Source: an uncultured Bacilli bacterium
Lineage (GTDB): Bacteria; Bacillota_I; Bacilli_A; RF39; UBA660
Direction: 5' to 3'
NCBI GenBank assembly: GCA_947628535.1
Contig: CANRAF010000004.1
Location: 8,566-72,565, forward strand
Length of the DNA stretch: 64,000 bases
The notes below the pieces were generated by a model. It had not been told where the DNA came from and ran no database searches. It saw only the letters and a program-made list of their open reading frames with translations. Below, in pieces: positions 15,254 to 37,322 of this stretch. The translations under genes and the position numbers were made by a program. How positions within the stretch are numbered: the first letter of the stretch is position 1; the number at the start of each line of letters is the position of its first letter.

Positions 15254-16360
15254 TTAATTCTTTATTATTTTAGTAATATCCTTCATTTTTAAATCATCAT
15301 TTTTTATTTCATAATATAGACTTTCAATTGGTTTTAATAAGAGCATTAATAAAATGAAAATTACTGCAATTGTTTGATATAAAGTTTTTTCTTTTAAATT
15401 TTTTAAAAGTTTGTTTATTAGAGTATTAAATAAATTATTAATTTTAGATGTGCTAAAAATAATTACTAGGATAAGCGTTAAAATTAATGCATATAATACA
15501 TAGATATCATCGTATGTTTTATAAGAAAAGATTTTTTGAAATATTAAAGTAAATGGTCTATGAATTAGATATATTAAAAGGCAGTATTTTCCAGCATTTG
15601 TAATAATTTTAAGTTTTTTATCAGGAATTATTATATAAAGAGTGAATATAGCAATTAAACTTATAATAATTAAACCAATCCTAATAAAGACATCTTCAAA
15701 ATCTTTGTAATGATAATATAAAAGTTTATTAGTAGAAATACCTAATTTTGTAGTTACTAAAAATGTTATTACTATAATGGAGCTTATAAGTAAGCAAATT
15801 AAAAATTTTTTAAAATTTTTAGTGTTTTGAAATTTAATTTTTAAATTTTTAAAATCATATTTGTAACCTATTAGGAAAAATGGAAAAAATGCTATTGTTC
15901 TTACTATTGATAATGTATTTCCAACATCACTCCAATAACCAATTAGTATAGAGATAAAAATACTAATTGGAAGAATGCCTTTTATTTTTGAAAGTGGTCT
16001 TATCATAAGACGCCAAGCTATTACTGAAAGCAAATACCAATATGAATATTGTGCTACTAAAAGATGAAATGAGTTTTCATGAAGATAAAATCTTGTAAAT
16101 AGCATTAAAAAGGTATTAAAAATTAAATATATTACTATTAATTTAGCATATGATTTTGCTTTGAAAACATTTTCACTTCTACTTAAATAACCTGTTGTAA
16201 AAATAAATGCTGGCATGTGAAAAAGATAGATAAATGTAGTTATATCACTTGCTAAAGTATTTGTAAGATGAGTTTTATATGTAAAAAGGAAATGAGCAAA
16301 GACTACAAGTATTATTAGTATTCCTTTATAATTATCCCAAAATGCACTTCTCTGTTTCAT
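15254..16360 (-). CDS. Acyltransferase family 3 (OafA/YrhL-like) membrane O-acyltransferase.
   Basis: N-terminus RSAFWDNYKGILIILVVFAHF matches the acyltransferase-3 signature. About 10 TM helices. First gene of the surface-polymer locus. Confidence 0.75.
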   Translation of the reverse strand: MKQRSAFWDNYKGILIILVVFAHFLFTYKTHLTNTLASDITTFIYLFHMPAFIFTTGYLSRSENVFKAKSYAKLIVIYLIFNTFLMLFTRFYLHENSFHLLVAQYSYWYLLSVIAWRLMIRPLSKIKGILPISIFISILIGYWSDVGNTLSIVRTIAFFPFFLIGYKYDFKNLKIKFQNTKNFKKFLICLLISSIIVITFLVTTKLGISTNKLLYYHYKDFEDVFIRIGLIIISLIAIFTLYIIIPDKKLKIITNAGKYCLLIYLIHRPFTLIFQKIFSYKTYDDIYVLYALILTLILVIIFSTSKINNLFNTLINKLLKNLKEKTLYQTIAVIFILLMLLLKPIESLYYEIKNDDLKMKDITKIIKN

Positions 16361-16420
16361 TTTTTATCCCCCTATGTTATTATAGCATTATTTTATTAAA
16401 TAAAAAAGACATGATTCTTA

Positions 16421-17716: not shown

Positions 17717-18452
17717 GATTTTTCATATATTCTTCATATTTATCTACTACTTCTTGGGCAGGCCCATCACCTTTTATTTCACCTTCGTTAAGCCAAATTA
17801 CTCTATCGCAAAGTGATTTTAAGGTTTTAGAACTATGTGATACTATAATTACTGTTCTATTTTCATCATTTATTAATTCTTTCATTTTGTTGTAACTTTT
17901 TTCTCTAAAATGAATATCTCCTACTGACAATACTTCATCAATTAACATAATATCTGTTTCCAAAATAGCTGTTATTGAAAAAGCAAGTTTTGAATACATT
18001 CCTGATGAATATGAGAGTACAGGTTTATAGATAAAATCCCCAAGTTCGGAAAATTCTATTATTTCGTCTAAACGTTTTTTTATTTCTTCTTCAGTATACC
18101 CGAGAAGAAGTCCTGATAGAAAAATATTTTCGTATCCAGATAATTTTCTTTGGAATCCTACTCCAATTGAAAGTAAAGAAATGCTGTTTCCATGAAGATC
18201 GATTTCTCCACTATCTGCTGAAAATATACCTGCTATTGCTCTTAAAAGAGTAGATTTCCCACTACCATTTTTCCCGCATATTCCTACTATTTCACCTTTA
18301 GGTATTTCAAAAGATACATTTTTTACAGCATGGAAATTGCGAGCATTTACTAAATTATTTAAACCAGATTTAGCTATAGAAAATCTTTTTATTTCCTTAT
18401 AGAAAATATTTAAATTTTTAACTGTTATTGCTATTTTTTCTTTTTTTGCCAT
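17709..18452 (-). CDS. ABC transporter ATP-binding protein, TagH/Wzt-like polysaccharide or teichoic-acid exporter.
   Basis: Walker A GKNGSGKST, ABC signature YSSGMYSKLAF, Walker B IMLIDEVLSVGD. Start overlaps the permease gene. Confidence 0.85.
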   Translation of the reverse strand: MAKKEKIAITVKNLNIFYKEIKRFSIAKSGLNNLVNARNFHAVKNVSFEIPKGEIVGICGKNGSGKSTLLRAIAGIFSADSGEIDLHGNSISLLSIGVGFQRKLSGYENIFLSGLLLGYTEEEIKKRLDEIIEFSELGDFIYKPVLSYSSGMYSKLAFSITAILETDIMLIDEVLSVGDIHFREKSYNKMKELINDENRTVIIVSHSSKTLKSLCDRVIWLNEGEIKGDGPAQEVVDKYEEYMKNLD

Positions 18453-19240
18453 TATCTCATCACCTTTACATAAGTATTTTCATATTTATAGATTGTTCTT
18501 ATTCCAAGTAGTGCAAGTAAAAGCCCAATAACGAACCATGCACCCATCAAGGTGAAATCCATACTCATGCCATATAATAAAACATCACGGCACTGCGTTA
18601 TGATCGCGGCTACTGGATTGGCTACTATTAATATCTCATTGTATGGCTCTGGGACTCTTTTATCTAAGGCAAAGAATACACCTGAAGCGTAAAATACAAG
18701 TCTTAAAGCAATTGTAGTAATGTTAGCTAAATCTTGAACAAATACTCCAAAATGCATAAATATAGCACAAATACCAAATGTAAATATAAATAGTATTATA
18801 AAAATTGGGAAAAAATATAGAACATTCCAAGTTATAGGTACTTGGTAAATAGCCATACAAATTATTACTAATAAGAATGAAATAAAGAATTTTACAGAAT
18901 TTATGGACATTCTAGTAAGTAAAAGAATAAATTTTGGGACATACACTTTTGTTACAGTATCTCTATTTGAAAGGACTAAACGAACACTTGCAAGTAAACT
19001 TTTTTGAAAGAAACTCCAAATTGTAAGTCCAATAAATACGAACACAGGGAAATATTCAACACTTGAATTGAATACAACAATTGCTATAAATGTATAAATA
19101 AGCATAAAGCAAATTGGTTCTAAGAAAAGCCAAATCCAGCTTAAATATGATCCTGCTATTTCAGCTTTTAATCCAGATTTTGTTGCATATGCTATGTATT
19201 TAGAATATTTCTTTAAATCCTTAAAAAATCTTTTTATCAT
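18452..19240 (-). CDS. ABC-2 type permease (TagG/Wzm-like).
   Basis: 262 aa, six TM segments, ABC-2 membrane-domain architecture. Immediately upstream of the ATPase gene. Confidence 0.8.
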   Translation of the reverse strand: MIKRFFKDLKKYSKYIAYATKSGLKAEIAGSYLSWIWLFLEPICFMLIYTFIAIVVFNSSVEYFPVFVFIGLTIWSFFQKSLLASVRLVLSNRDTVTKVYVPKFILLLTRMSINSVKFFISFLLVIICMAIYQVPITWNVLYFFPIFIILFIFTFGICAIFMHFGVFVQDLANITTIALRLVFYASGVFFALDKRVPEPYNEILIVANPVAAIITQCRDVLLYGMSMDFTLMGAWFVIGLLLALLGIRTIYKYENTYVKVMR

Positions 19241-19845
19241 TCTTTATCATCTTCCTTTTGTTTTTTAAAGCTTTCATATTCATCGGGTGTATTATAATCA
19301 ATAGTATTTTTATCTACTATTATAAATTTATCTTTTATTTGTTTTACATCAAATTCAAGGTTTTGAAATGATTGATATATTTGCCAGCCTTTACAGTTTC
19401 TTATTTTGCCTGAATTAAATAAATTTCTTACATTTTCAATGTGTTTTTTAAATAAAGATGAATCTTTTACTTTAATAGCAACAATTGATTTTTCATTTCC
19501 AAAGAATAAAATATCTTCAGGTTCTGTTTCAATTATTCTTTTTATATCTTTATCTGAATAATAAGTATCTCCATAAAGAAAACAAATATTGTTTTCAATA
19601 AGCTCAGCTGTAAATCTATCTAATTCAATTATATTTTGATTTGGTTCATATCTTGTTGCACCTTCAACTTCATATCTTTTGTCATGAGAAGTTATAATTA
19701 TTTCACTATTTTTATCAAACTTTTTAAGTTGTCTTACTATTCTCTCTAAAATAACTTCGCCATTTATTTTCATCAAATGTTTTGGTGTATCTTTATAGTT
19801 GTTCCATCTTTTGCCTTTCCCATCGGCCATTATTATATATTTCAT
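19237..19845 (-). CDS. MobA-like/LicC-like nucleotidyltransferase. Putative phospho-alcohol or sugar cytidylyltransferase.
   Basis: N-terminus MKYIIMADGKGKRW...TPKHLMKINGEVILERIVRQL matches the NTP_transf_3 G-x-G-x-R motif and the following PK(A/H)L motif. Confidence 0.55.
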   Translation of the reverse strand: MKYIIMADGKGKRWNNYKDTPKHLMKINGEVILERIVRQLKKFDKNSEIIITSHDKRYEVEGATRYEPNQNIIELDRFTAELIENNICFLYGDTYYSDKDIKRIIETEPEDILFFGNEKSIVAIKVKDSSLFKKHIENVRNLFNSGKIRNCKGWQIYQSFQNLEFDVKQIKDKFIIVDKNTIDYNTPDEYESFKKQKEDDKE

Positions 19846-19863
19846 AACATCACCTTGATATTT

Positions 19864-20991
19864 TTATTTTTCTTTCATTTTCTTAATAATGTAATCAGTT
19901 ATTAATTCAGTTGATTTACCAAGTTTTTTTGGTAAATATTTTTTTCTAAATTCTTGATAAGCTTTATTATCATAATTGTTCTTTCTTATTATTTCAATTA
20001 AATCTTTAACTCTTTTTGAAGAACATGTTGGAAGCACTTTATAAGCATCTAAGTTTATTCCATTATCTTTCATATATTTATCATAATCATATACGTAGAA
20101 TAACACTTTTTTATTTAAAATAGCAGCCTCTAAACAAATAGATGAGTAATCAGTTATTACGTAATCTGCTACTGTTAAAAGTTCAGTAGATTTAAATTCT
20201 GGGCATTCATATGCTTTACTTTTACTAATATCTATTTTTTGATTAGGATGCCCTCTTACTATTAAAATAAAATCTTCCTTTTCACATTCTTTAAGAAGTT
20301 TTTTAGGACCATCTACTTCATATGTTCTAAATGTTGGAGCGTAATAAACTATTTTTTTGTTTTTAAATTCAGGATATTTTTTATAAATTTCTTTTTTTAG
20401 ATTTTTTTCATTATCTAAAAGATAGTCTATCCTTGGAAGACCAAAATGTAATAAAATATCTTTTTTTACATTAAAGCCAGCCTCATAAAATTCATCAAAG
20501 GACTCTCCTCCTGCTAATATAGCATCATAGTTTTTATGCATACACATAAGATTAGCCATTTGTTTGCTTCTGCCAGATGTAGTATCTAAACTTTGATATC
20601 CTGACTTTTTAATTTTACCAATTGAATGCCATATTTGCAAGACAAATAGTGATTTTTTATGTTTTAGTATACATACTGGTATGCAATAGGAATCTATTAT
20701 AGCAATTTTTGAAGTTGCTAAATGATACATTTGTTTTAAAGTTAGAAAAAAGAATTTAATACTATTAATTATACCTTTTTTCATTCTTCTGCAGATAAAA
20801 ACCATTTTTATATTTTTATCCTTTTTTTCTAAACTTTCCTTTATTAAACGAAAATCAACGTTTATTTCATCAGTTTGTCTACTTATAAATACTACTTTTT
20901 TATTATTAGTAGGTAAAAGTTTTAAAAAGAAATATATTATTTTTAAAACGGCTTTAAATATGTGAATTAACAATACTTTCATAGTTATCAC
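19864..20991 (-). CDS. CDP-glycerol glycerophosphotransferase (TagB/TagF family).
   Basis: C-terminal half carries YYAPTFR, RGHPNQ, and ITDYSSICLEAAILNKKVLFYVYDYDKY, which are characteristic of the TagF-family catalytic domain. Confidence 0.8.
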   Translation of the reverse strand: MITMKVLLIHIFKAVLKIIYFFLKLLPTNNKKVVFISRQTDEINVDFRLIKESLEKKDKNIKMVFICRRMKKGIINSIKFFFLTLKQMYHLATSKIAIIDSYCIPVCILKHKKSLFVLQIWHSIGKIKKSGYQSLDTTSGRSKQMANLMCMHKNYDAILAGGESFDEFYEAGFNVKKDILLHFGLPRIDYLLDNEKNLKKEIYKKYPEFKNKKIVYYAPTFRTYEVDGPKKLLKECEKEDFILIVRGHPNQKIDISKSKAYECPEFKSTELLTVADYVITDYSSICLEAAILNKKVLFYVYDYDKYMKDNGINLDAYKVLPTCSSKRVKDLIEIIRKNNYDNKAYQEFRKKYLPKKLGKSTELITDYIIKKMKEK

Positions 20992-21041
20992 CTCATTAAC
21001 TATTAATAGTTTAATGCATTATTTTAGTGTTTTAAAATAAG

Positions 21042-22091
21042 TTATTTTATAATTTTTTCTTTTCTGTAAAAATCTCCTAAAACGTTATTTCTTTGCCCTC
21101 CAAAAACTTGGATTATATTTACTCCTGATGAATTATTTGCTTCAATTACATATATATCATCATCAGTTGGTAAAACATCCCAGGCTACAAATTTAAATTC
21201 AGGAAGATTTTCAGCAAGTTTAATCATTTTGTTTTTTATTTGATTCCAGTTTGGAACTTTTACTCCTTCTATTTTTTTATTGGAATCAGGATGTTTTGAA
21301 TATTCTTTTTTATTTTGAATTGATTTTGCTTTACTTAATATTCCTGTTTCTAAATCAATTTTTGCAACTAATCCACCTTTACTTCCATTATCCACTGGGA
21401 TAGTTTTTTTACATCCTATTCGCTGAACTGCAAAAGGTATTTTTATATCACCTTCATCTCTTATGGTTATAATGCGAATTGTATTTGATGCTTTGTTATA
21501 TATATTATCTAAATATTTTGCTTGCCTTATGCAAGTAGAAATAAAGTAATTATCATTTTCACTTAATATTTTTTTTATTTCTACTTCAGCCAACTTTTCA
21601 AAATTAACTGAAAATTCATTATTTGAAAAATCAATTCTGAATACCCCAATTCCTTTTCCTACAGAAATTGGTTTAAAAAATGTGCTCTTTTCTTTTTTTA
21701 ATAAGCTTATTGCTTCATCAATTGTTGTCTCTTTATCGTCTTTATTTCTTATAACACCTTTTTCGCATTTTATTATAGTTTTTGGAGTTTTTATAAATTT
21801 TTCAATCATTTTCTCACAAATTAATTTGTTATTTAACATATATGAATTTGGATAATTTATCTTTCTAGATTTATACCAGTCAAACTCTGATAAATACTCT
21901 TTTTGAGTTTGTTTATTTAAATCATACAATGCAATTTGATCGGCTGTAAAACCTCCATTAAAGGCATAATACAAACGTTTATTAAGTGGTACTTTGAAAT
22001 GTTTCTTAGAAAATAATATTCTTACTATAAAAACAGGGATAAGCCAAAGAAATCTTTTTATTTTAAAAATAATTAATCTTATTTTTTTCAC
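21042..22091 (-). CDS. ATP-grasp_ST amidoligase paralogue B (349 aa).
   Basis: KPISVGKGIGVFRID, NTIRIITIRDEGDIKIPFAVQRIGCKKTIPVDNGSKGGLVAKIDLETG, HPDSNKKIEGVKVPNWNQI, VAWDVLPTDDDIYVIEAN. Confidence 0.65.
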   Translation of the reverse strand: MKKIRLIIFKIKRFLWLIPVFIVRILFSKKHFKVPLNKRLYYAFNGGFTADQIALYDLNKQTQKEYLSEFDWYKSRKINYPNSYMLNNKLICEKMIEKFIKTPKTIIKCEKGVIRNKDDKETTIDEAISLLKKEKSTFFKPISVGKGIGVFRIDFSNNEFSVNFEKLAEVEIKKILSENDNYFISTCIRQAKYLDNIYNKASNTIRIITIRDEGDIKIPFAVQRIGCKKTIPVDNGSKGGLVAKIDLETGILSKAKSIQNKKEYSKHPDSNKKIEGVKVPNWNQIKNKMIKLAENLPEFKFVAWDVLPTDDDIYVIEANNSSGVNIIQVFGGQRNNVLGDFYRKEKIIK

Positions 22092-22100
22092 TGTATCACC

Positions 22101-23285
22101 TTACCATTTTAATATTTTAGCTAGGTGCATTACAATAAATCTAGAATAGTTTGCATTTTTTATTTTTCTTTTTAATCTTCTAAATTTTCTAACTATTATA
22201 TTACTACCTTCGAAAACTAATTTTTCGTCTAATCCATCAAAATGATATTTTTGAATTAAATCATCAAATGAAACTAAATTTTCACATTTTGCTTTTTCTA
22301 TTATTAGATTACTTATAGAAAACTGTCTTCTATATTCTTTTAATCTCGTTCTATTTTCTTTAATTTGTGATAATCTTCCTGCTTCTTTTTTCCATTCTTT
22401 TTTCCAAGTTTTTTTAATATCTTTAAAGTGATTGTTTATTGTCGCTACTTTTATTTTTTCTTCGTCTCGTACTATTTTTATTGGAAGAGAATCAAAAGAA
22501 TAATCATCTTTTGTAAATGTAATACTTAGACACATTCCTTCATCTGTCCCCTTTTGTACACGTTGAAACTCTGTATCAAAAATGAAGTTTCCAAGAGAAT
22601 AAAATACAAGTTTTTTATTTATTCTTTCATATCCTTGTACTGTATGGGTATGATGGGCTACTATTACATCAACTCCCCAGGAAAGAAATTTTTTTATTTT
22701 CTTTTTTGTATATGGCATTGGGCTGTTTAAAAACTCTTCCCCACCATGATATACAAGTAAAACCCAATCGGTTTTTTCTTTTAATTCTTTTATTTTTCTT
22801 TTTAGTATTTTTTTATATTTTTCATGGGCTGGTCCCGGTGTTTCCATAGTTGCACTTACTGCATCTTTATATTGAAATGATAAAACTCCTACTTTAACAT
22901 CTTTACCAAGAATTAGATAATCCGTTGCTTCATCAATGTTTTTTCCAGCACCAATATATTTTACATTAGCTTTTTTAGTGTTTTCTAGGGTATCTAATAT
23001 ACCTCTTTCTCCATAATCTAACATGTGATTATTGGCAAATGAAAGTACTGGATTATTTATATACTTTTTAAGAAAACTTATTGTTTCAATATCACTTTTA
23101 TGGGCAAGAGCAGATTTTTTAGTTTTTGAAAAATCAGTTATTGGAGACTCAAAATTTAAAATATTATAGTCATTGCTATTTAAAAAATCATAGATTTTTC
23201 TATCAATATTTTTAGGATTTTTATACAAGTCTTTGGTAAATTCACTAAAAGCTATATCCCCTGTAAAACCAATTGTTGTTTTCAT
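22101..23285 (-). CDS. CapA/PgsA-family protein (capsule or poly-gamma-glutamate biosynthesis, metallophosphatase fold).
   Basis: N-terminus TIGFTGDIAFSEF, ...LSFANNHMLDYGERG..., HGGEEF, and VIVAHHTHTVQGYE are conserved CapA (PGA_cap) motifs. Confidence 0.8.
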   Translation of the reverse strand: MKTTIGFTGDIAFSEFTKDLYKNPKNIDRKIYDFLNSNDYNILNFESPITDFSKTKKSALAHKSDIETISFLKKYINNPVLSFANNHMLDYGERGILDTLENTKKANVKYIGAGKNIDEATDYLILGKDVKVGVLSFQYKDAVSATMETPGPAHEKYKKILKRKIKELKEKTDWVLLVYHGGEEFLNSPMPYTKKKIKKFLSWGVDVIVAHHTHTVQGYERINKKLVFYSLGNFIFDTEFQRVQKGTDEGMCLSITFTKDDYSFDSLPIKIVRDEEKIKVATINNHFKDIKKTWKKEWKKEAGRLSQIKENRTRLKEYRRQFSISNLIIEKAKCENLVSFDDLIQKYHFDGLDEKLVFEGSNIIVRKFRRLKRKIKNANYSRFIVMHLAKILKW

Positions 23286-24388
23286 TAACTATTCGCCTCC
23301 TCTTCTTCTTTTTGTTTTTCAATTAACTTATACATTTTATCGAAATATGATCTATATCCTTTTTTAGTAAATGTTTGAATAGTTACACATTGTGGTCTTG
23401 CATTTCCTTCTACTAAAACCCAGCCATCATTTGTTAAGGCAAGATCCCAACCAACACAGTGCATTTCAGAAAGCTCTGATGCCAAGCTTTTTACTGTTAC
23501 TAAAAGTTCATTCCATTTTGGAATTTGAAATCCTTTAAAAGTAATATTTGAATCAGGATGTACTTTTTCTTTATCACCTTTCCAGTCGAATCCATCACTT
23601 ATTATTTTTCCTGTTTCACTATCTATTAAGGCTCCAAGTCCTGAAGCACCCATATTATCTACACTACTTCCACCTTGGCCTGTTCTAATAAATGCCCAGA
23701 GAATGGATACATCTTCTTTATACTGAAATGTAACAACTCTGATTGTGTTAACTGAATTTTTATGAAAACAACCTAATTCATTTGATTGTTTAATCAATTC
23801 CTCAGCAACATAAGGAGCTTTTTCGATTGTATAGTTAAATAACTCTTTTTTATTTTTAAAATCTTTTACATTTATAATTTCTATTCCTTCGCCACTATGA
23901 CCTGAAAATGGTTTTAAAATAAATTTATCTTTATCTTTAATAAAATTGTTAAATATTTTTTCTTCTGTTTCATCTTTGATACATATTAAATCTCTTTTAT
24001 AGTATTTTTTAAATACTTTGTATGATAAATTTTTCTTATCTAAAACCTTTCTAAATTTTCTAGTATTAATAACTCTGTAATACTTATTAGTTAATTGTCT
24101 AGTTATATATGTGTCTCTTTTATCATATGGAACCTTTTCAAAATCAAATAAATAATATTCGCCTGCACGCAGAAAATATATATATCTATAAACAATAAGT
24201 TTCATATACATTTTTTTAAATTTTAATTTTTTTATATCTTCTCCTTCAAAGTTATATATTTCTGTTATAGTATCTTCTTTTATATTTTTGTATTTGCCAA
24301 ATATTATAAAACAAACTTTTAAAAATAAATAAATTAGTACAACAGACTTATTGTTTTTTTCATATATTTTTCTTAAAGTATTTCTCAT
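23285..24388 (-). CDS. ATP-grasp_ST amidoligase paralogue C (367 aa).
   Basis: KPFSGHSGEGIEIIN, NTIRVVTFQYKEDVSILWAFIRTGQGGSSVDNMGASGLGALIDSETGKI, HPDSNITFKGFQIPKWNEL, VGWDLALTNDGWVLVEGN. Confidence 0.7.
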   Translation of the reverse strand: MRNTLRKIYEKNNKSVVLIYLFLKVCFIIFGKYKNIKEDTITEIYNFEGEDIKKLKFKKMYMKLIVYRYIYFLRAGEYYLFDFEKVPYDKRDTYITRQLTNKYYRVINTRKFRKVLDKKNLSYKVFKKYYKRDLICIKDETEEKIFNNFIKDKDKFILKPFSGHSGEGIEIINVKDFKNKKELFNYTIEKAPYVAEELIKQSNELGCFHKNSVNTIRVVTFQYKEDVSILWAFIRTGQGGSSVDNMGASGLGALIDSETGKIISDGFDWKGDKEKVHPDSNITFKGFQIPKWNELLVTVKSLASELSEMHCVGWDLALTNDGWVLVEGNARPQCVTIQTFTKKGYRSYFDKMYKLIEKQKEEEEANS

Positions 24389-24471
24389 TTTTTCACTCCT
24401 TTTTAATTTTCTATATAATTATATCATGCATAATATAATTTATAAAGAAAATTAGTTTATAAACACTATAA

Positions 24472-26487
24472 TTATTTAATAGGTTCAAATTTTATTTTTT
24501 TATCTTTCGCATATTTATGCGCATAAGAGTTTTTGTTTCCTTTTATAACTACATTATTACTTTTATAAAAAGCATAATTACTTATTTTTTGTACTGAATC
24601 AGGTATTGTTATTTCTTTTAAATTCTTACATTTTGCAAATGAATATTTTCCTATAGTTAGAAGTCCATCAGGTAATTCAATTTCTTTTAAGTTTTTACAA
24701 GAATAAAATGCTTCTTTTCCAATTGCTTTTAAATTTTTATTAAAGTTTATTTTTTCAATTGTACTACCATAAAAACATCTTTTAAAAATACGAGCCAAAT
24801 CATTATTTAAAGTTATTTCTTTTATTACTTTATTATCTTTAAATATTTCTGCTCCAATTTTTTCTACTGGTAAATTATTTATTTCATTAGGTAGTGTTTC
24901 TTTTTCTTCAATTTGCTTTACTTTAGTTATAGTAATCCAAGTTTTATATTGATTAAATGAGTATTTTTTATCTTTTTTAACTTTATATTCCTTATGAGAT
25001 GTTGCAAGTTGTTCTCCAATAATTGTTCCGAATTGTTTGTCTATAATGGCTGCAAAATTCATACCATGAGATGCTTTAAATAGAATAATGTCATCTTTTT
25101 GCAAGTTTTTATTTAAAGCATTTACCAGTTCCTCTTTATCTTTACAATAGATAGAATTTTTCCTTTTTTTACTATATTCTTCATATGCATATTTCATTTT
25201 TTCTCCATTAAATATGATAAGGTCGATATTATGCTCCAAGAGAAGTTTTCCAACATCACGGTGGATTTGTTCAGAAATATTTCCAAGTTCAAAGATATCT
25301 CCAAGTACTGCTACTCTTCTTGCGCTTTCTTTTATTTCTATTAGCTCAAATGTTTTTAAAATATTTTTAATAGCATCATAAGATGAGTTATAACAATCTG
25401 CTAAAATTTTATATTCACCAACATTTATTAAGTTTTGTCTAACGCCTTTTGTTTTATATTTAGTAATACCTCTTATTATTTTTTCTTCACTAATATTTAA
25501 ATATTTTCCAATTATATAAGCAGTTAAAGCATTTAATATATGATGTTCTCCTATTACTTTTAATTCAACTGGAATTTCTTTGTTTTCAATACTATCTACT
25601 ATAATAAATCTTGTTCCTTTGCTAGTTACTTTAATATATTTAGCATAATAGTCTGCTTTTTTATTATTTAAGGAAAAAGATAGTCTTTTTTGAACAAATT
25701 TATGTTTTCTTAAAATATCATCATCATAATTAATAATTGCAAGTCCATCTTTTTTGCCATAATCTGAAAGAGTAAATTTTTCTTTTGCTATATTTTCTCT
25801 TGACCCATACCATTCAATATGTGAATCTTTTATATTAGTATAAACTGCAATATCAGCTTCGAGAAGAAGCGCAGATCTTTTTACAATATCATAGGCTCCA
25901 TTTCCAGCTCCTGCTTCTTGGAGTAATATTTTGTCATTATAATTTAATTTTTTTACATTTTCAGCAGCTTTGAATGCAGAATTACTATTACCAGCAGATG
26001 CCACCATTTTGTTTTTATATTCTTCTTTTAAGCATGCTTCTATCATATCTTTAGTTGAAGTTTTACCAATAGAACCTGTTACTGCAATTACTTTTGCTTT
26101 TGATTGGTTTCTTATATAGTTTAAAGTTTTTAGTCCTGCGGATACCGGATCTTTACATATTAAACATCTCGCATTTTCTATTTTTTCGGGTGTTACAACA
26201 AACATGGCATTTTTACTAATTTTTTCTTTCATTTTGTCAGTTAAATTAAGATATCTAAATGTATAATAAATACATCCTGGTTTTATATTTTTGTATGATA
26301 TAGTTGGTTCTTTTATTTTTTTTCTTTTTAAAGATTCATATTCTTTTGGCACTTCTATTCCAGTTATTTCAGAAATTTTCTCTAAAGTTAATCTTTTTTT
26401 ATTTGCAAAAATTACTTTAAAAAATAATCTTTCTATTTTTCTATAAATTATTGCCAATTTTCTTATTATTTTTTTCATTTTTTTCAC
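24472..26487 (-). CDS. Mur-ligase-family protein (MurF-like amide ligase) fused to C-terminal BspA-type leucine-rich repeats (LRR_5).
   Basis: Mur ligase P-loop VIAVTGSIGKTSTKDMIEA. MurF-like NIKDSHIEWYGSRENIAKEK. C-terminal 120 aa carry repeats of the pattern IGKEAFYSCKNLKEIELP / IGKYSFAKCKNLKEITIP. The start abuts the xseB stop (RBS GGTGA inside xseB). Confidence 0.7.
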   Translation of the reverse strand: MKKMKKIIRKLAIIYRKIERLFFKVIFANKKRLTLEKISEITGIEVPKEYESLKRKKIKEPTISYKNIKPGCIYYTFRYLNLTDKMKEKISKNAMFVVTPEKIENARCLICKDPVSAGLKTLNYIRNQSKAKVIAVTGSIGKTSTKDMIEACLKEEYKNKMVASAGNSNSAFKAAENVKKLNYNDKILLQEAGAGNGAYDIVKRSALLLEADIAVYTNIKDSHIEWYGSRENIAKEKFTLSDYGKKDGLAIINYDDDILRKHKFVQKRLSFSLNNKKADYYAKYIKVTSKGTRFIIVDSIENKEIPVELKVIGEHHILNALTAYIIGKYLNISEEKIIRGITKYKTKGVRQNLINVGEYKILADCYNSSYDAIKNILKTFELIEIKESARRVAVLGDIFELGNISEQIHRDVGKLLLEHNIDLIIFNGEKMKYAYEEYSKKRKNSIYCKDKEELVNALNKNLQKDDIILFKASHGMNFAAIIDKQFGTIIGEQLATSHKEYKVKKDKKYSFNQYKTWITITKVKQIEEKETLPNEINNLPVEKIGAEIFKDNKVIKEITLNNDLARIFKRCFYGSTIEKINFNKNLKAIGKEAFYSCKNLKEIELPDGLLTIGKYSFAKCKNLKEITIPDSVQKISNYAFYKSNNVVIKGNKNSYAHKYAKDKKIKFEPIK

Positions 26488-30181: not shown

Positions 30182-31756
30182 TCACTTGATATATGGCTTT
30201 ATTATATTTAAAATTCCTTTTTCTTCTGTGATTCCATAAATAGATTGGAATACACGCATTGCATGATTATGGTTTCCTTCGATTAATTCGATTTTGTTAT
30301 CATTAGTAATAGCGATATCCCATCCAACATATACTACATCTTCAATTTTTTTTGCTACCTCATTTATTGTTTTTATTACTTTATCCCAATTAGGTATTTG
30401 GAAACCTTTAAATTTTATATTTGAGATTGGATGAGTTTTATAAATATTTCCTTTTTTATCTGCACCATCAGTATCAATTTTACCTGTTTTAGTGTTGATG
30501 CCCGCGATTATTCCGCCTGCCGACCAGTTATCATAATTATTTTTTACACCTGTCCTAAAAACAGCTGCTAATATATTTACTTTCCCGTCAACTTTAATTG
30601 TTGCTATACGAATAGAATTACATGATTCTTCATGAAACTTTGCAGTGTCTTTATGTTGAATTATAAATTCTTCAATTAATCCGGGTCCGCTTTGCATTAT
30701 ACATTCGTAAACATTTCTATTTTTCTTTTCGTTTTCGTTTACCTTAAATTTTTGAAAACCCTTGCCTTCCTGCATATCTAATGGCTTATAGGCAATTAAA
30801 TTTAATCCTTTTATATTTTTTTCGAAATCTTCAAATGTTAGATTTTCTGTTAAAAACCATTTTCTATTTATCCATTTTTTAAAGGTTTTATTAAATAAAG
30901 ATTTGTCTTTAAAATATTTATACTTTTCTTTTGGAACCCAATACTTTATTTTCATTTTAAAATGATTATCTTCTGTCATGAATTTACGTTGTTCTTCTTT
31001 TGATTTATTATATAGTTTATAAAGATAATATTCATCTCCATTACAACCACAATTTATTCTGGCATTAATATAGTTTATACGATATCTTCCAATACTAATC
31101 CCCATTTCATTAGAAGCTTTTAATCTTTGATTTTGTTTTTCTTTTTGTTTTTCTTCAAAACTTTTTTCTTCCTCTTTTGAAAGAATTGGATTCTCTTTTT
31201 CTTTTAAATTTTCTAAGTCTTTTTTACTTAATAAATATAAATCTTCTGTTATGAATTTTTTGTATGAATATCCTTTTTTTCTAGCAATATCCATTCTTTC
31301 TATTGCTTCTTGCTCCTTTAAATTAGTTTTTTCCATTACAACTTTTGCATACCATAATTTGTTCTTTTCATTTTTTTCTTGTAACTTATCAAGTGCTTGT
31401 TTGTATTCCTTTAACTCCTCTAGTGTGAATTCCCACATCCTGTCTTTTATAAACATTTTATAAGTTATTCCAAGTTTTTGAGAAGTTTTAACTAGCTTTA
31501 TTGCTTCGCTTTTACTAACCCCCCCCCCAGCATATTTTTGGGTCTTTTTTATTGCTTCTTTTTTTAGTTTTAGTATTTCTCCAAGTTCAATCAATTCTTC
31601 TTTTTTCTTTTTATAACTTTTATTTTTTGCATAATCATTTAGACTTATTCCATATTTATGTGCCTTTATTAGCCTTTTTATTATTTTAAAACTATTCCAT
31701 CCTGTTTCTCGTTTTATCTTATTAAAGTTTTTTATCTTTTTCTTCATGTTTTTCAT
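30182..31756 (-). CDS. Long ATP-grasp_ST amidoligase paralogue P2 (524 aa). Contains an in-frame G10 tract.
   Basis: KPLDMQEGKGFQKFK, NSIRIATIKVDGKVNILAAVFRTGVKNNYDNWSAGGIIAGINTKTGKI, HPISNIKFKGFQIPNWDKV, VGWDIAITNDNKIELIEGN. N-terminal repeats AHKYGISLNDYAKNKSY / SQKLGITYKMFIKDRMW / ARKKGYSYKKFITEDLY. Confidence 0.7.
   Translation of the reverse strand: MKNMKKKIKNFNKIKRETGWNSFKIIKRLIKAHKYGISLNDYAKNKSYKKKKEELIELGEILKLKKEAIKKTQKYAGGGVSKSEAIKLVKTSQKLGITYKMFIKDRMWEFTLEELKEYKQALDKLQEKNEKNKLWYAKVVMEKTNLKEQEAIERMDIARKKGYSYKKFITEDLYLLSKKDLENLKEKENPILSKEEEKSFEEKQKEKQNQRLKASNEMGISIGRYRINYINARINCGCNGDEYYLYKLYNKSKEEQRKFMTEDNHFKMKIKYWVPKEKYKYFKDKSLFNKTFKKWINRKWFLTENLTFEDFEKNIKGLNLIAYKPLDMQEGKGFQKFKVNENEKKNRNVYECIMQSGPGLIEEFIIQHKDTAKFHEESCNSIRIATIKVDGKVNILAAVFRTGVKNNYDNWSAGGIIAGINTKTGKIDTDGADKKGNIYKTHPISNIKFKGFQIPNWDKVIKTINEVAKKIEDVVYVGWDIAITNDNKIELIEGNHNHAMRVFQSIYGITEEKGILNIIKPYIK
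31480..31640. repeat. Near-identical DNA segment of about 160 bp shared with 34780..34940 (paralogues P2 and P4).
   Basis: By eye the two stretches are almost identical, for example ...cttttactaaCCCCCCCCCCagcatatttttggg(t/c)ttttttattgcttctttttttagttttagtatttctccaagttcaatcaattctt... Confidence 0.7.
31519..31528 (-). repeat. Homopolymeric G10 tract (C10 on the plus strand) within paralogue P2 (codons about 76-79, ...KYAGGGVSKS...).
   Basis: Plus strand ctaaCCCCCCCCCCagc. The coding strand reads GCT GGG GGG GGG GTT = A G G G V. Confidence 0.9.
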
Positions 31757-31817
31757 ATCAAAATCTCTCCTTAATTATGTCTATATTTTAATTACAAATA
31801 TATTTTCTATATTAAGT

Positions 31818-33371
31818 CTATTTATCATTAAGATATTTTTCTACTAATGGCCTAACGCCTTTGTTTTCTATTACAGCATATGGATACTGAAATATTCTAA
31901 TTCCAGGATTATGATTTCCTTCAATTAATTCAATTTCACCATTTTTAGTTATTGCTATATCCCATCCTATATATGGCATTTTCGGCACTTCTTTTGATGC
32001 GTCTTTTAATTTTTTTATTATTTCATTCCATTTTGGAATTTGAAATCCTTTTATTTTTGTATTAGTATCTGGATGTAGCTCATAAATGTTCCCTTTTTTG
32101 TCTACTGCATCTGTTATAACGATTCCTGTTTTAGGATTAATTGATGCTACAAGACCTCCGGCAGTAAAATTATCTATGGTTTTTGTTTTATTACATCCCA
32201 TGCGAAGGGCTGCCATAATAATTTCAAATTTTCCATTTCTAATTATAGTCATAATTCTTATTGTATTTAAAGAGCCTGGATATATTTTACCTATATTTTC
32301 ATCTTGCTCTATAACTTCTTCTATTATATAATCTTTATTTTTAATTTTTTTATATGTAAAATAATCGCTAAAAATATTTCTATTTACTTTGTATATATTT
32401 ATTCCACTTCCACCATAATCATATAATGGTTTTACAATTATTTTATTAAGATTAGAAATTTTTTCTTTAAAATCATAATAATCTTCAAAATCTGATGCAA
32501 TAAACCATTTTCTATGTAAATAATTTTTAAATTTTTCATTGAATAGTGCTTTACTATCAAAAAATTTATAATTTCCTCCATAATCACAGTATTTTATACT
32601 CATTTTTAAACAAACTTCATTAGTCATAAATTCTTTTTGCTTATCCATATCATACTTGTATAACATTAATTGATAATAATCATTTAATTTCGCTTGGGAA
32701 ATTGCTCTTGATTTTAAAAATTCTATTTTAAATCTTGGCTCTGACCAATTCATTTCCTTTCTAATTTTTTGTTCATATTCTTTATTTTCTTTTTTTATCT
32801 GCTTAACATTTTTTTTCTTAAATACTGGTTTTGGATAAACTTTAATTTCTTCAACAGTTAATTTTTCTAATCCATTTAACATAAAATTAACTGTTGAATA
32901 TCCTCTTTCTCTAGCAATATTTAGTTTTTCAAGTACTTCATCTTTAGATTGGCCTGTTTTATCCATTGCTACTTTTATATACCATTCTTTGTCTTCTTTT
33001 GTTTTTTTATGTTTCTTGTTTAGTGCTTCACCATATTCAACTAGTTCATCTAAAGAAAAATTCCACATCTTGCCAAGTGTATACATTTTGTATGTTATTC
33101 CATATGATTGCGCTACATTCAATCGTTCCTTTCCCTCTTTTTTAGATAATTTTTGTTTCTTTATTGTTTTATTAAGGGCATTCTTTTTATATTTTAATGT
33201 TTTGCTAAGTTTTTTTAATTCTTTTATTGTCATATTATAACATCGATTTTTTATATATGGAGTCATAGTAATTCCATACATTTTAGCCATCATCAATTTT
33301 TTTATTATTTTAATATTGCTCCATTTTGTTGCTCTTTTTATTACCCTTAAATTTTTTCTAATTCGTTTCAT
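31818..33371 (-). CDS. Long ATP-grasp_ST amidoligase paralogue P3 (517 aa).
   Basis: KPLYDYGGSGINIYK, NTIRIMTIIRNGKFEIIMAALRMGCNKTKTIDNFTAGGLVASINPKTGIV, HPDTNTKIKGFQIPKWNEI, IGWDIAITKNGEIELIEGN. N-terminal repeats AKMYGITMTPYIKNRCY / AQSYGITYKMYTLGKMW / ARERGYSTVNFMLNGL. Confidence 0.7.
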   Translation of the reverse strand: MKRIRKNLRVIKRATKWSNIKIIKKLMMAKMYGITMTPYIKNRCYNMTIKELKKLSKTLKYKKNALNKTIKKQKLSKKEGKERLNVAQSYGITYKMYTLGKMWNFSLDELVEYGEALNKKHKKTKEDKEWYIKVAMDKTGQSKDEVLEKLNIARERGYSTVNFMLNGLEKLTVEEIKVYPKPVFKKKNVKQIKKENKEYEQKIRKEMNWSEPRFKIEFLKSRAISQAKLNDYYQLMLYKYDMDKQKEFMTNEVCLKMSIKYCDYGGNYKFFDSKALFNEKFKNYLHRKWFIASDFEDYYDFKEKISNLNKIIVKPLYDYGGSGINIYKVNRNIFSDYFTYKKIKNKDYIIEEVIEQDENIGKIYPGSLNTIRIMTIIRNGKFEIIMAALRMGCNKTKTIDNFTAGGLVASINPKTGIVITDAVDKKGNIYELHPDTNTKIKGFQIPKWNEIIKKLKDASKEVPKMPYIGWDIAITKNGEIELIEGNHNPGIRIFQYPYAVIENKGVRPLVEKYLNDK

Positions 33372-33486: not shown

Positions 33487-35049
33487 TTATTTTAAATAGG
33501 GTTTTATGACATTACCTATACCTTTATCTTCTAAAAGAGCATACGCTGATTGAAAAACGCAGACATCATGATCATGATTTCCTTCAATTAGCTCAATATC
33601 GCCATTTTTGGTAATTGCAACATCCCAACCAATATATGGCATATTTTCTACAACAGTAGATGCTTCTTTTAATACTTTTACTATCTCTTTCCACTTAGAT
33701 ATTTGCTCGCCTTTAAATTTTTGATTTGTTATAGGGTGTTTTTTGTAGATATGTCCTTTTTTATCTGAAGCATCAGATATTATTTTTCCTGTTTTTGGAT
33801 CTATTATAGTTATTATTCCTCCAGTTGACCAATTATCATATTCATTATTTACTCCAATTCTAAGAACAGATCCAAGAATTGTAAATTTTCCATCTATATT
33901 CATAGTAGCAATTCTTAAAGTATTACAGGATTTATTATTAAATTTAGCAGTGTCTTTATGTTGAATTATAAACTCTTCAACAATTCCATTTGGTTGTTTT
34001 TTTATGTAATTATAAACTCTTTTATTTTGTTTTTTACTTTCATTTACTTCAAATTTTTTAAATCCTTTCCCCTGAAGACTACTAATTGGTTTATAAGCAA
34101 TTAAATTTAATCCCTTTATATTTTTTTCGAAATTTTCAAATGATAAATTTTCAGTTACAAACCATTTTCTTTTTACCCATTTCTCAAATGTCTTATTAAA
34201 CAATTCTTTATTTTTAAAATAAATATAATTTTTTTGATAATCACAATATGTAAATATCATTCTCCAATGCTTGTCTACAGTTATATAATTCCTTTGTTGT
34301 TTTTCGCTTTTATTATATAGTTTATATACTAAAAATTCTCGTTCACAACAACCACAGTTAAGCTTTGCCTTTTCACATTCAATTCTGTATCTGCTGTTAG
34401 TCCAGTTCATCTCTTCCATTACTTTTTTCTTATCTTGATTTATTCTTTTTCTTAGCTGCTTATTTTTTTTCTTATCAGTTTTTGATTTTGTATTGTCTTT
34501 TTTATTTAAACAATCTATTTCATTATTTGATAAAAGATACATATTTCGTATTATTATATCAGAATACGAATATCCTTTACTTGATAGTTTATTTATTGCT
34601 TCTAAAGCTTCTTCATTAGTAAGTTTAGATTTTTCACTAATTAATTTTACATAATATTCTTTTCTCTCTTTATAATTTATCTTTTTTAAATCTAATATTT
34701 CTTTATACTCTTTTAATTCTTCTTTAGTAAATTCAAAGCATTTATTATTTAAATATTTTTTATATGTTATACCAAGTTTCTGGGCAGTTTTAACTATTTC
34801 TATTGCTTTGCTTTTACTAACCCCCCCCCCAGCATATTTTTGGGCTTTTTTTATTGCTTCTTTTTTTAGTTTTAGTATTTCTCCAAGTTCAATCAATTCT
34901 TTATTTTTCTTTTTATAACCCTTGTTTTTTATATAATCGTCTAAATTTATTCCGTATTCTCTTGCTCTTACTAATCTTTTTATTATCTTTATATTATTCC
35001 ATTTTGTTTGTTTTTTTAGCTCTTTTAGATTTTCTGATGTCCTTCTCAT
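33487..35049 (-). CDS. Long ATP-grasp_ST amidoligase paralogue P4 (520 aa). Contains an in-frame G10 tract. Closest paralogue of P2.
   Basis: KPISSLQGKGFKKFE, NTLRIATMNIDGKFTILGSVLRIGVNNEYDNWSTGGIITIIDPKTGKI, HPITNQKFKGEQISKWKEI, IGWDVAITKNGDIELIEGN. N-terminal repeats AREYGINLDDYIKNKGY / AQKLGITYKKYLNNKCF / SSKGYSYSDIIIRNMY. Confidence 0.7.
   Translation of the reverse strand: MRRTSENLKELKKQTKWNNIKIIKRLVRAREYGINLDDYIKNKGYKKKNKELIELGEILKLKKEAIKKAQKYAGGGVSKSKAIEIVKTAQKLGITYKKYLNNKCFEFTKEELKEYKEILDLKKINYKERKEYYVKLISEKSKLTNEEALEAINKLSSKGYSYSDIIIRNMYLLSNNEIDCLNKKDNTKSKTDKKKNKQLRKRINQDKKKVMEEMNWTNSRYRIECEKAKLNCGCCEREFLVYKLYNKSEKQQRNYITVDKHWRMIFTYCDYQKNYIYFKNKELFNKTFEKWVKRKWFVTENLSFENFEKNIKGLNLIAYKPISSLQGKGFKKFEVNESKKQNKRVYNYIKKQPNGIVEEFIIQHKDTAKFNNKSCNTLRIATMNIDGKFTILGSVLRIGVNNEYDNWSTGGIITIIDPKTGKIISDASDKKGHIYKKHPITNQKFKGEQISKWKEIVKVLKEASTVVENMPYIGWDVAITKNGDIELIEGNHDHDVCVFQSAYALLEDKGIGNVIKPYLK
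34780..34940. repeat. Near-identical DNA segment of about 160 bp shared with 31480..31640 (paralogues P4 and P2).
   Basis: See the partner repeat. It includes the poly-G tract and encodes ELIELGEILKLKKEAIKK(A/T)QKYAGGGVSKS...QKLGITYK. Confidence 0.7.
34821..34830 (-). repeat. Homopolymeric G10 tract (C10 on the plus strand) within paralogue P4 (...KYAGGGVSKS...).
   Basis: Plus strand ctaaCCCCCCCCCCagc. Same codon context as the P2 tract. Confidence 0.9.
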
Positions 35050-35121
35050 TTATATTCACTCCTTAACTATTTTCACTTTACATCTATTATAGTTTTTTCT
35101 ACAAATATAGTCAAATTGCTC

Positions 35122-35150
35122 CATAAAAAAATTATGCTTTTTAGCATAAC
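35122..35150 (-). terminator. Rho-independent terminator after the ttcA-like gene.
   Basis: Minus strand reads UUAUGCU-AAAAA-AGCAUAA followed by UUUUUUU. Confidence 0.5.
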
Positions 35151-35151
35151 T

Positions 35152-35946
35152 TTAATATTTATCTAAAAATGTATATGTTTTATTTTCGTCTTTGTATCCA
35201 AGTACTTGTTGAAGTATTACATTTTCACTACTTTTCATTATATGAATATCTATGTTTTTATCAATTTTTCTTAAAGATTCTATTAATTCTTTTATCTCTT
35301 TTCTTTTTCCTTCTTCTTTTTTTGTAACTGTACAGGCACAATCTAAAAATGATAAGTTACAGTAGTTTTTAAAGGCAATTATATCTTTTTCTTTTACAAA
35401 ATAAAGTGGTCTTATAAGTTCCATGTTATGAAAGTTAACACTTTTTAATTTTGGCATCATTGTTTTATATTCACCAGTATAAAATATATTTAGTAGAATT
35501 GTTTCTATTACATCATCAAAGTGATGTCCAAGGGCAATCTTATTACATCCAAGTTCTTGGGCTTTTGCATATAAAGATCCTCTTCTTTTTCTGGCACATA
35601 AATAACACATTGATTTTTGATTTTCTATTTCTTTAAAAATATTACTTTCATATATTGTTGCATTTATATTTAATTTTTTTAAATTTTCTTTTATTTTTTC
35701 TAGATTTTCTTTTTTATACCCTGGATCCATTACTATAAATTTTAAACTGAATTTAAATTTGCTATGTTTTTCTAATTCCTGCATACATTTTGCTAAGATG
35801 AATGAATCTTTTCCCCCAGAGATACAAACTGCTATTTTATCTCCATCTTCTACTAAAGAATATTCTTTAACTGCCCTTAAAAACTTGGAATATATTTTTC
35901 TTTTAAATGTTTTAATTAGACATCTTTCAATTTCATTTGCTTCCAC
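35152..35946 (-). CDS. ttcA: TtcA-family PP-loop ATPase (tRNA 2-thiocytidine synthase-like tRNA thiolation enzyme).
   Basis: PP-loop CISGGKDS. Conserved cysteine pairs (CYLC ... CACT). 264 aa. Confidence 0.7.
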   Translation of the reverse strand: MEANEIERCLIKTFKRKIYSKFLRAVKEYSLVEDGDKIAVCISGGKDSFILAKCMQELEKHSKFKFSLKFIVMDPGYKKENLEKIKENLKKLNINATIYESNIFKEIENQKSMCYLCARKRRGSLYAKAQELGCNKIALGHHFDDVIETILLNIFYTGEYKTMMPKLKSVNFHNMELIRPLYFVKEKDIIAFKNYCNLSFLDCACTVTKKEEGKRKEIKELIESLRKIDKNIDIHIMKSSENVILQQVLGYKDENKTYTFLDKY

Positions 35947-35999
35947 TTATACCACCTTGTTTTATTATACTATTTTTAAAAGTAAAAACAAGATTTAAA

Positions 36000-37322
36000 T
36001 TAATCTCGTTTCAGATCTTCGACTATCTTTTCAATACTTTTTGTGGTCTGCTCTCCAGTTTCCATATTTTTTATAGTTACCTCATTTTGCTTCTCTTCAT
36101 TTTCTCCGATTATACATACATAAGGTATTTTTGCTCTATTAGCATATTTTAATTTTGATTTAAAACTTTTGTCTTCAAGGAAAGTATCAGTATTTATTTC
36201 ATTTTCTCTTAAAATTTTAGCAACTTTTAAAGAATATGGAATATTTTCAATACTAAATGGAACTACTAAAACTTTAGTTAATGTTTTTACTTTAGAATTT
36301 ATTATTCCTGCTTCTTTTAGTTTATAAAATAATCTGGTAATTCCTATTGAAATACCTATACCACTTAAATTTTCATCAAGATAGTATTTGGTTAAATTAT
36401 CATATCTTCCTCCAGAACAAATACTTCCAAGTTCTGGATAATCATCAAGTACTGTTTCGTATACTGTTCCTGTATAATAATCAAGTCCACGTGCTATAGT
36501 TAAATCAATTTTATAAAAAGTGTTATCACTGTTAAATTTTCCAATATTACTTATTACATATTCAAGTTCATTTACTCCACTATTAAAATTTTCATTTTCT
36601 ATATTTAGTTTCTTTAGCTTTGATATTATTTCTTCGTTTGTTCCAGTAATAGTAATGAAGTTTAATATTTCTTCTATTTTTTCGTTATCGATATTAATTT
36701 TTCTTAACTCTTCTATTATTTTTTCTTTTCCTATTTTTTCAAGTTTATCAATTATTCTTAAAATATCACTTGTTTTATCAGAAATAGAAAGTTCATTAAA
36801 AAATCCTAAGAGAATTTTTCTATTATTTATTTTTATTGTAAATTTACCAAAGTTTAACTTTTTAAATATTTCATAGATAATTGAAGGAACTTCTACATCA
36901 TAATTTAAACTTAAATTTTCATCTATAACATCTATGTCACATTGATAAAACTCTCTATACCTTCCCTTTTGAGGCCTTTCACCGCGATATACTTTTCCTA
37001 TTTGATATCTTTTAAATGGGAATGCTAAATTATAATAATTTTTAGATACATATCTTGCAAATGGAACAGTCAAATCAAATCTTAAAGATATATCGTTTTC
37101 ACCTTTTTTAAATCTATATATTTGTTTTTCAGTTTCACCTTTAGCTTTCGCCAAGAGAATAGATGAATACTCAAGTAATGGTGTATCAATTGGTAAAAAT
37201 CCGAAACTTTCATAAGTTTTTCTAATTGTATCAATCATTTCATTAAATAATATTTGGTCTTCTGGGAGAAGTTCCATAAAACCTGGCATTATTTTTGGAG
37301 TTATTTTATCCATTGTAATCAC
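36000..37322 (-). CDS. hisS: Histidine--tRNA ligase.
   Basis: Class II aaRS with HisRS motifs (...RFDLTVPFARYV..., YRGERPQKGRYREFYQCD) and a C-terminal anticodon-binding domain. 440 aa. Confidence 0.85.
   Translation of the reverse strand: MITMDKITPKIMPGFMELLPEDQILFNEMIDTIRKTYESFGFLPIDTPLLEYSSILLAKAKGETEKQIYRFKKGENDISLRFDLTVPFARYVSKNYYNLAFPFKRYQIGKVYRGERPQKGRYREFYQCDIDVIDENLSLNYDVEVPSIIYEIFKKLNFGKFTIKINNRKILLGFFNELSISDKTSDILRIIDKLEKIGKEKIIEELRKINIDNEKIEEILNFITITGTNEEIISKLKKLNIENENFNSGVNELEYVISNIGKFNSDNTFYKIDLTIARGLDYYTGTVYETVLDDYPELGSICSGGRYDNLTKYYLDENLSGIGISIGITRLFYKLKEAGIINSKVKTLTKVLVVPFSIENIPYSLKVAKILRENEINTDTFLEDKSFKSKLKYANRAKIPYVCIIGENEEKQNEVTIKNMETGEQTTKSIEKIVEDLKRD

Follow-up and report, generated by a model that had tools for sequence, protein, structure and literature searches.

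Most of what is known about phase variation at poly-G tracts stems from a few Gram-negative pathogens. The lipooligosaccharide glycosyltransferase genes of Neisseria and Haemophilus (lgtA, lgtC and lgtG), for instance, carry poly-G/C tracts with measured switching rates, which yield combinatorial surface glycans. For the Bacillota group considered here, the routes known to us are invertible promoters and poly-A/T tracts, and we know of no description of a poly-G phasome strategy. In the following, we describe a stretch of 64,000 nucleotides from an uncultured Bacilli bacterium (RF39; UBA660; assembly GCA_947628535.1, contig CANRAF010000004.1, positions 8,566–72,565 of the forward strand), referred to as the window, in which two diverged paralogues of the ATP-grasp family PF14397, P2 and P4, each contain an in-frame run of ten G (G10). 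These tracts are probably hypermutable repeats that act as slipped-strand, presumably reversible ON/OFF switches (contingency loci) of two ligases.

The best-surveyed systems of this kind are the phasomes of Campylobacter, in which poly-G/C tracts of at least 7 nucleotides are counted; the modal length is 9–10, and 77% of the tracts lie in open reading frames (ORFs), where the coding strand carries C in only 5% of cases (PMC6321876). An ATP-grasp gene, CFT03427_1510, is phase-variable and part of the core phasome of C. fetus (PMC6321876). In Listeria monocytogenes, a 5' poly(A) tract in inlA undergoes frameshift and reversion at a frequency about 1000 times that of point mutation, and the frameshift leaves a very short product (Orsi et al., 2010; PMC2831843). 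More generally, the enrichment of repeats near N-termini has been interpreted as tuning for phase variation (PMC3315296).

The locus in the window resembles the Campylobacter poly-G genes in that the genome is AT-rich, the runs are intragenic, nine or ten nucleotides long and have G on the coding strand, and a frameshift would turn the gene ON or OFF. As in the capsule, lipooligosaccharide and flagellar-glycan loci of Campylobacter, several paralogues in a putative polymer- or glycan-modification setting carry a tract each, and variant alleles differ at the tract only. The host, however, is no Campylobacterota pathogen but belongs to an uncultured lineage of Bacillota that carries sporulation genes (SpoIVB, SpoIIM and SirA), and only three tracts are seen within 64 kb. 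PF14397 with a four-module helical N-terminus lies outside the characterized phase-variable families of Campylobacter, and two of the paralogues have in common an apparently converted switch patch of 118 nucleotides. With inlA, the locus has in common the Bacillota host, the 5'-proximal homopolymer and the short frameshift product, but the homopolymer of inlA is poly(A), is confined to the first few codons and belongs to a gene for a surface protein, whereas here codon-improbable poly(G) lies in genes for cytoplasmic ligases. As with the lgt genes of Neisseria and Haemophilus, several biosynthetic enzymes would switch independently; here they are predicted ATP-grasp amidoligases, there glycosyltransferases of Gram-negative mucosal pathogens. 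The type of switch proposed here is thus already known; new are its host lineage, the enzyme family concerned and the common, apparently converted patch.

P2 (30182–31756, minus strand) encodes 524 residues. Its tract occupies positions 31519–31528 (C10 on the plus strand), and the coding strand reads AAA TAT GCT GGG GGG GGG GTT AGT, that is K-Y-A-G77-G78-G79-V-S, so that the run consists of codons 77–79 and the first base of GTT. A scan of the sequence confirmed the coordinates and the peptide given in the original prediction, which had placed a run of ten in frame, as the Gly-Gly-Gly of QKYAGGGVSKS, about 76 codons into a gene of 524 codons. The tract is thus 5'-proximal, at 15% of the gene. 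That prediction had, however, overlooked a second, identical tract in P4 (33487–35049, minus strand; 520 residues, 55% protein identity to P2) at 34821–34830, where codons 74–76 and the G of GTT encode the same peptide, K-Y-A-G-G-G-V-S-K-S. A possible third and weaker switch, likewise overlooked, is a G8 tract at 17025–17032 in a fifth PF14397 gene (16421–17695, minus strand; recorded product of 424 residues starting MKIVRK), which reads ACT GGG GGG GGT within EGTGGGGAC, a Gly-rich loop. Only four G/C runs of at least 6 nucleotides exist in the window (C10 at 31519–31528, C10 at 34821–34830, C8 at 17025–17032 and C6 at 44762–44767). All three that reach at least 8 have G on the coding strand, lie inside a PF14397 (ATPgrasp_ST) gene and are of hypermutable length (poly-G/C of at least 7–8; cut-offs from PMC6321876).

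Neither chance nor codon usage accounts for these tracts. The window has a GC content of 25.8%, and seven C8/G8 matches were observed against a mean of 0.12 in 100 dinucleotide-preserving shuffles, none of which reached seven. When synonymous codons were resampled 3000 times in the 51 long ORFs, 0.089 G/C runs of at least 8 were expected and three observed, and 0.004 runs of at least 10 were expected and two observed; neither observed number was ever reached. Shuffles and codon resampling thus agree with the earlier statement that a run of ten G is effectively impossible by chance in a genome of about 25% GC. GGG makes up 8% of the Gly codons, and where Gly-Gly-Gly occurs outside the ATP-grasp genes, no more than one of its codons is GGG and there is no long G run. 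Two limits apply to these numbers: the G8 tract taken alone is not significant (0.089 runs of at least 8 expected per window), and the two G10 tracts, judging by the 118-nucleotide patch common to P2 and P4, are non-independent events.

A change of tract length has drastic consequences for the product. With G9, P2 would yield 85 and P4 82 residues, both ending in YAGGGLVKAKQ; with G11, the products would be 80 and 77 residues long, because GGT TAG follows directly after the run. G8 and G12 behave like the other off-frame lengths. Off-frame stops lie 0–6 codons past the tract and about 190 codons ahead of the Pfam ATP-grasp match, which in P2 starts at residue 275. The expectation that slippage by one nucleotide in either direction would truncate P2 before its catalytic domain is therefore borne out, with stops at residues 80–85 of 524. 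In the fifth PF14397 gene, G7 or G9 would lead to truncation inside the ATP-grasp domain. In the G11 frame, an ATG directly before the tract (within TATGCT, 31529–31534 in P2 and 34831–34836 in P4) enters the frame of the gene body and opens ORFs of 450 and 449 residues starting MLGGGVSKS; this internal ATG has no Shine-Dalgarno sequence upstream, and no such product is on record.

The original prediction had proposed to compare tract length across isolates, which we approximated with ENA assemblies. Protein records served as a proxy: the predicted products of G9, G11 and other lengths were matched exactly against them, and the underlying contigs were then inspected. Nine conspecific ENA contigs, 21.4 kb in all, were aligned to the window. 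For both genes, the exact G9 product is on record, P0251 (85 residues) for P2 and P0252 (82 residues) for P4. Contig L093 (ERZ27249541), which matches window positions 30435–31981, has P2 at G9, and contig L094 (ERZ27249519), which matches 34264–36013, has P4 at G9. By contrast, P2 is at G10 in L001 (ERZ27249530), where it is 100% identical to the window, and in L002 (ERZ27249519). Sample ERZ27249519 thus combines P2 at G10 (L002) with P4 at G9 (L094). In L093 and L094, G9 is linked to paralogue-specific bases 12–15 nucleotides away, and such bases lie at 31507 (C/T) and 31543–31544 (TC/CT) in P2; the flanks of the G9 and G10 variants are 99.8–100% identical, at a coverage of 2–3x that leaves room for an error origin. 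In these alignments, A/T runs of 6–8 nucleotides were observed 190 times without any change in length, whereas the G10 tracts differed in two of four observations. The original prediction had allowed for a consensus or assembly artefact; the presence of the tract in four independent ENA contigs (G10 in L001 and L002, G9 in L093 and L094) rules out an artefact of this assembly. Taken together, the reading frame, the chance tests and the G9/G10 polymorphism support its proposal that the in-frame G10 is a candidate slipped-strand phase-variation switch. For the G8 tract, a look-up through the neighbouring ABC ATPase gave no contig from other samples. A pattern scan of JGI metagenomes with the tract flanks and any spacer of 4–18 nucleotides found no match, and a protein-based scan of the same collection found its closest relative at only 53% identity; by these scans, the window's species is absent from that collection.

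The two G10 tracts lie within a patch that is shared between the genes. In 60-nucleotide windows, the DNA of P2 and P4 is 55–70% identical, except for gene nucleotides 140–270, where identity rises up to 97%. The exact patch, 118 nucleotides at 31500–31617 in P2 and 34802–34919 in P4 (both minus strand), is identical at 113 of 118 positions (96%), has only these two occurrences in the window and is the best-conserved DNA of both genes. Because the remainder of the genes has diverged so much further, the tract was probably copied between P2 and P4 by gene conversion or homogenized later, and the pattern indicates putative gene conversion at the patch, with the P4 copy as partner. Two independent assemblies, L005 and L006, both break at the same base inside the patch (34847), which argues that the repeat disrupts k-mer and short-read assemblies there and that the P4 tract is rarely covered for this reason. 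On the plus strand (31526–31542 and 34828–34844), a hairpin of five pairs (CCCAGCATATTTTTGGG) includes the last C bases of each tract and has a T run behind it; it scored as terminator-like on the antisense strand and is conserved by way of the patch. We take it to be incidental, given the antisense strand and the stem of only five pairs.

P1–P4 (28582–35049) are four tandem, co-directional paralogues of 517–528 residues with a C-terminal PF14397 domain (E-values 1e-42 to 1e-51; 2e-43 for P2). P1 (28582–30168) and P3 (31818–33371), both on the minus strand, have no tract. Three more members, 16421–17695, 21042–22091 and 23285–24388, bring the PF14397 genes in the window to seven, with scores of 143–179 bits against the curated cut-off of 31.4. 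With a Pfam match of 149 bits and an ATP-grasp fold, the proteins resemble RimK-like alpha-L-glutamate ligases and PF14397, the 'sugar-transfer associated ATP-grasp' family; TIGR02291 (rimK_rel_E_lig) was matched as well, but weakly. The AlphaFold2 model of P2, built with 14 homologues, has a mean predicted local distance difference test (pLDDT) score of 91.6. In it, the first 260 or so residues are made up of four helical modules, each about 60 residues long (pLDDT about 95), and the strands of the ATP-grasp domain begin at about residue 300. In each N-terminal module of P1–P4, a long helix leads into a turn, frequently T-G-W, after which come a helix of 13 residues and several short ones. 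This half matches no Pfam or NCBIfam family, and more distant homologues (P0016, P0017, P0019 and P0023) have three to six such modules. With a probability of 1.00, the best Foldseek matches in the PDB are YwfE/BacD (L-amino-acid ligase), Ddl (D-Ala-D-Ala ligase), RimK and LysX/ArgX. Since these best matches of the C-terminal domain are amino-acid-type ligases, the products of P1–P4 are predicted to be ATP-dependent carboxylate-amine ligases. In our family searches, no PF14397 member with the four-module N-terminal extension had a known substrate, and a full-text literature search on the family name gave no paper.

In the P2 model, Gly77–79 mark the end of helix 52–78 and the turn at 79–81, between two helices of module 2; the equivalent turns of the other modules are at 19–21, 145–147 and 219–221. 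In the family alignment, the tract site falls in a variable segment with a two-residue insertion in P2 and P4, and P1, P3 and homologues at 47–53% identity are rich in K, N and S there, without a Gly run (KKQKLSKKEG in P3). Because the site is variable and homologues do without the Gly run, the three glycines are probably dispensable for the protein, and the GGG codons even more so. The notion that P2 and P4 are missing from the NCBI proteins and hence pseudogenes was wrong, as both are on record from the 76,120-bp MAG contig at NCBI.

The surroundings of the array offer a hint at its function. A wall-polymer-like cluster at 15254–26487 encodes an acyltransferase-3 protein, three PF14397 proteins, an ABC-2 exporter pair, a nucleotidyltransferase (cytidylyltransferase), a TagF-like glycerophosphotransferase, a PGA_cap protein and, at 24472–26487, a MurF-like ligase with fused leucine-rich repeats of the BspA type. 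Based on the family name and these neighbours, a role in wall-polymer decoration can reasonably be predicted. P1–P4 themselves, however, are flanked by the ttcA-like gene and nusB and are not part of the wall-polymer cluster proper, an arrangement that weighs against this reading. In a related species (L088), seven tandem PF14397 paralogues occupy the syntenic site, beside ttcA-like, nusB and xseAB genes and the same TagF and ABC genes. The PP-loop gene next to P4 was considered as a part of the system and rejected, as it is TtcA-like and would serve in tRNA thiolation. Within the gene for the MurF-like repeat protein, contig L003 differs from the window (25282–25299) by an 18-nucleotide in-frame deletion flanked by the direct repeat CTTGGA...CTTGGA.

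In the mechanism that we propose, the nascent and the template strand would misalign within the G run during replication, and one G would be lost or gained. G10, like G7 or G13, would keep the frame and allow synthesis of the full ligase of about 520 residues, whereas G9 or G11 would shift the frame and lead to a stop after 77–85 residues, leaving the first helical module but no ATP-grasp domain. Since the same type of mutation would restore the frame, reversibility is to be expected. Two independent switches would give four expression states, or eight if the G8 tract also switches. The ligases most likely decorate a cell-wall polymer, each with a different amino acid or amine, so that a clonal population would hold a mixture of surface chemistries, and the switch module itself would have been copied between P2 and P4 by gene conversion. 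For this model, we infer the high rate and the reversibility of switching as well as the substrate and the selective agent, which might be phage, host immunity or competitors.

A number of observations weigh against a switch and must be set against the alternatives that they favor. It is conceivable, if unlikely, that G10 is stable and merely encodes Gly-Gly-Gly, that G9 in L093 and L094 is a sequencing or assembly error and that no switching takes place. Both G9 calls come from contigs with low k-mer coverage (2.25 for L093 and 2.6 for L094), Illumina data are error-prone at long G runs, and all variants are shortened by one, the direction typical of homopolymer under-calling; among the products searched for, only those of G9 and G10 are on record, but none of G7, G8, G11, G12 or G13 and no C-terminal restart fragments. 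P2 has G10 in three of four observations (the window, L001 and L002, with G9 in L093), and L093 has a noisy contig end. L094 carries an A4 to A3 change at 35809, beside a G5 run, that cuts the product of the ttcA-like gene (35152–35946) to 210 residues, so indel noise does exist in these assemblies, be it errors or real variants, and none of the A/T control runs reaches ten nucleotides. On the other hand, those 190 control runs come from the same contigs and show no change in length, and a stable tract would leave unexplained why three rare GGG codons occur in a row, twice, at such a low GC content, and why homologues lack Gly at the tract site. Moreover, G10 tracts of this kind are, as is well established, mutable wherever measured (PMC6321876).

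Alternatively, the tract might be truly hypermutable without being adaptive: P2 and P4 would be redundant genes under relaxed selection, the G run would have spread by neutral gene conversion, and G9 alleles would be steps towards pseudogenes. We consider this improbable, although several facts point that way. Lesions outside the tract occur in the same genes: in L002, a frameshifting 17-nucleotide replacement in P2 (window 31282–31288 versus L002 1729–1751) at codons 157–159 splits the product into 174 and 307 residues, which may be a genuine inactivating lesion or a chimera of assembly at low coverage, and in L087 (ERZ27249283), a contig that does not extend to the tract, P4 carries TGG to TGA (W291*) at window position 34177 and a 21-nucleotide in-frame insertion at 33672 that duplicates KVL... 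The split P2 of L002 was also considered as an OFF variant at the tract and dismissed, since this contig has G10 and it is the replacement that splits the gene. Such non-tract lesions may be errors or stem from recurrent selection against expression or from relaxed selection; both relaxed and fluctuating selection would be compatible with them. The family also has many members, and its copy number varies between species (a tandem array of four here, seven in L088). The trait is also not conserved: poly-G is absent from the tract site in the homologues P0002–P0007, in L007 and in the seven-paralogue array of L088, which has no G/C run of at least 6 nucleotides in 21.6 kb, and on this comparison the tract is lineage-specific. 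However, under neutrality the run should decay by interruption, yet in the metagenome-assembled genome (MAG) neither tract is interrupted and both keep the frame, and the flanking patch is the best-conserved part of both genes. Outside it, the genes are diverged but intact, with the ATP-grasp domain of P2 modeled at high confidence, and the tracts occupy the 5' end, the position in which a frameshift has the greatest effect, in line with a general pattern (PMC3315296).

A recoding signal, by which transcriptional slippage or programmed ribosomal frameshifting would generate two products without a change in DNA, might be suspected from the ATG that precedes the tract and is in frame with the gene body in the G11 frame (the 450- and 449-residue ORFs), and from the short CCC...GGG hairpin that overlaps the tract. 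We find this explanation hardly credible, as G10 already leaves the gene in frame, so that the full protein requires no recoding, either alternative frame stops within 0–6 codons and offers no extended product, the internal ATG lacks a Shine-Dalgarno sequence, and length differences were observed at the DNA level; moreover, known slippage sites are usually runs of A or T. Slipped-strand switching of P2 and P4 hence remains the reading that we favor. One may tentatively go further and view the 118-nucleotide patch with its G10 as a portable switch cassette, moved by gene conversion within an expanding ATP-grasp array, which would place new ligases under stochastic ON/OFF control and build up a combinatorial, Campylobacter-style phasome for wall-polymer decoration in an uncultured gut lineage of Bacillota; this extension is more doubtful than the switches themselves.

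The arrangement of the array might extend the effect of a switch to a neighbor. P1 begins 13 nucleotides past the P2 stop. Promoter-like sites (TTGACT-17-TATAAT, 11 of 12 positions, a consensus match only) lie upstream of P4 (35086–35114, minus strand) and P3 (33403–33431, minus strand), at a frequency in the region that is not above that in shuffles, and the consensus scan found no comparable site before P2 or P1. This layout suggests a putative P3-P2-P1 transcription unit, in which P2 OFF may lower the expression of P1 as well, by polarity.

Long G runs also came to our attention in two other genomes. In L022, an uncultured low-GC Bacilli MAG (24.6% GC), an intergenic G11 (14504–14514) lies directly upstream of a TATAAAT box and about 150 nucleotides before a gene for a 576-residue product with a hydrophobic start; it could be a promoter-level poly-G switch. 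In L058, a Bacillota MAG (UBA11492, 24.4% GC), a G10 (9876–9885) lies eleven codons into a short ORF (METKYTLKPSMGGGYIKTNN*) and 30 nucleotides from the contig end; it could represent an artefact of the contig end or, alternatively, a phase-variable gene captured while its frame is OFF.

The present case would thus extend the poly-G device to a very AT-rich Bacillota lineage known only from metagenomes, where it appears in two, perhaps three, ATP-grasp genes, with candidate ON and OFF alleles distributed across samples. It also matters for the annotation of MAGs, as such tracts break assemblies, as in L005 and L006, which end in the patch, and create apparent pseudogenes. If the switches are confirmed, G9 versus G10 at two anchored sites would provide an easily scored marker of surface variation in metagenomic reads, and the PF14397 array would stand out as a variable, selected part of the envelope.

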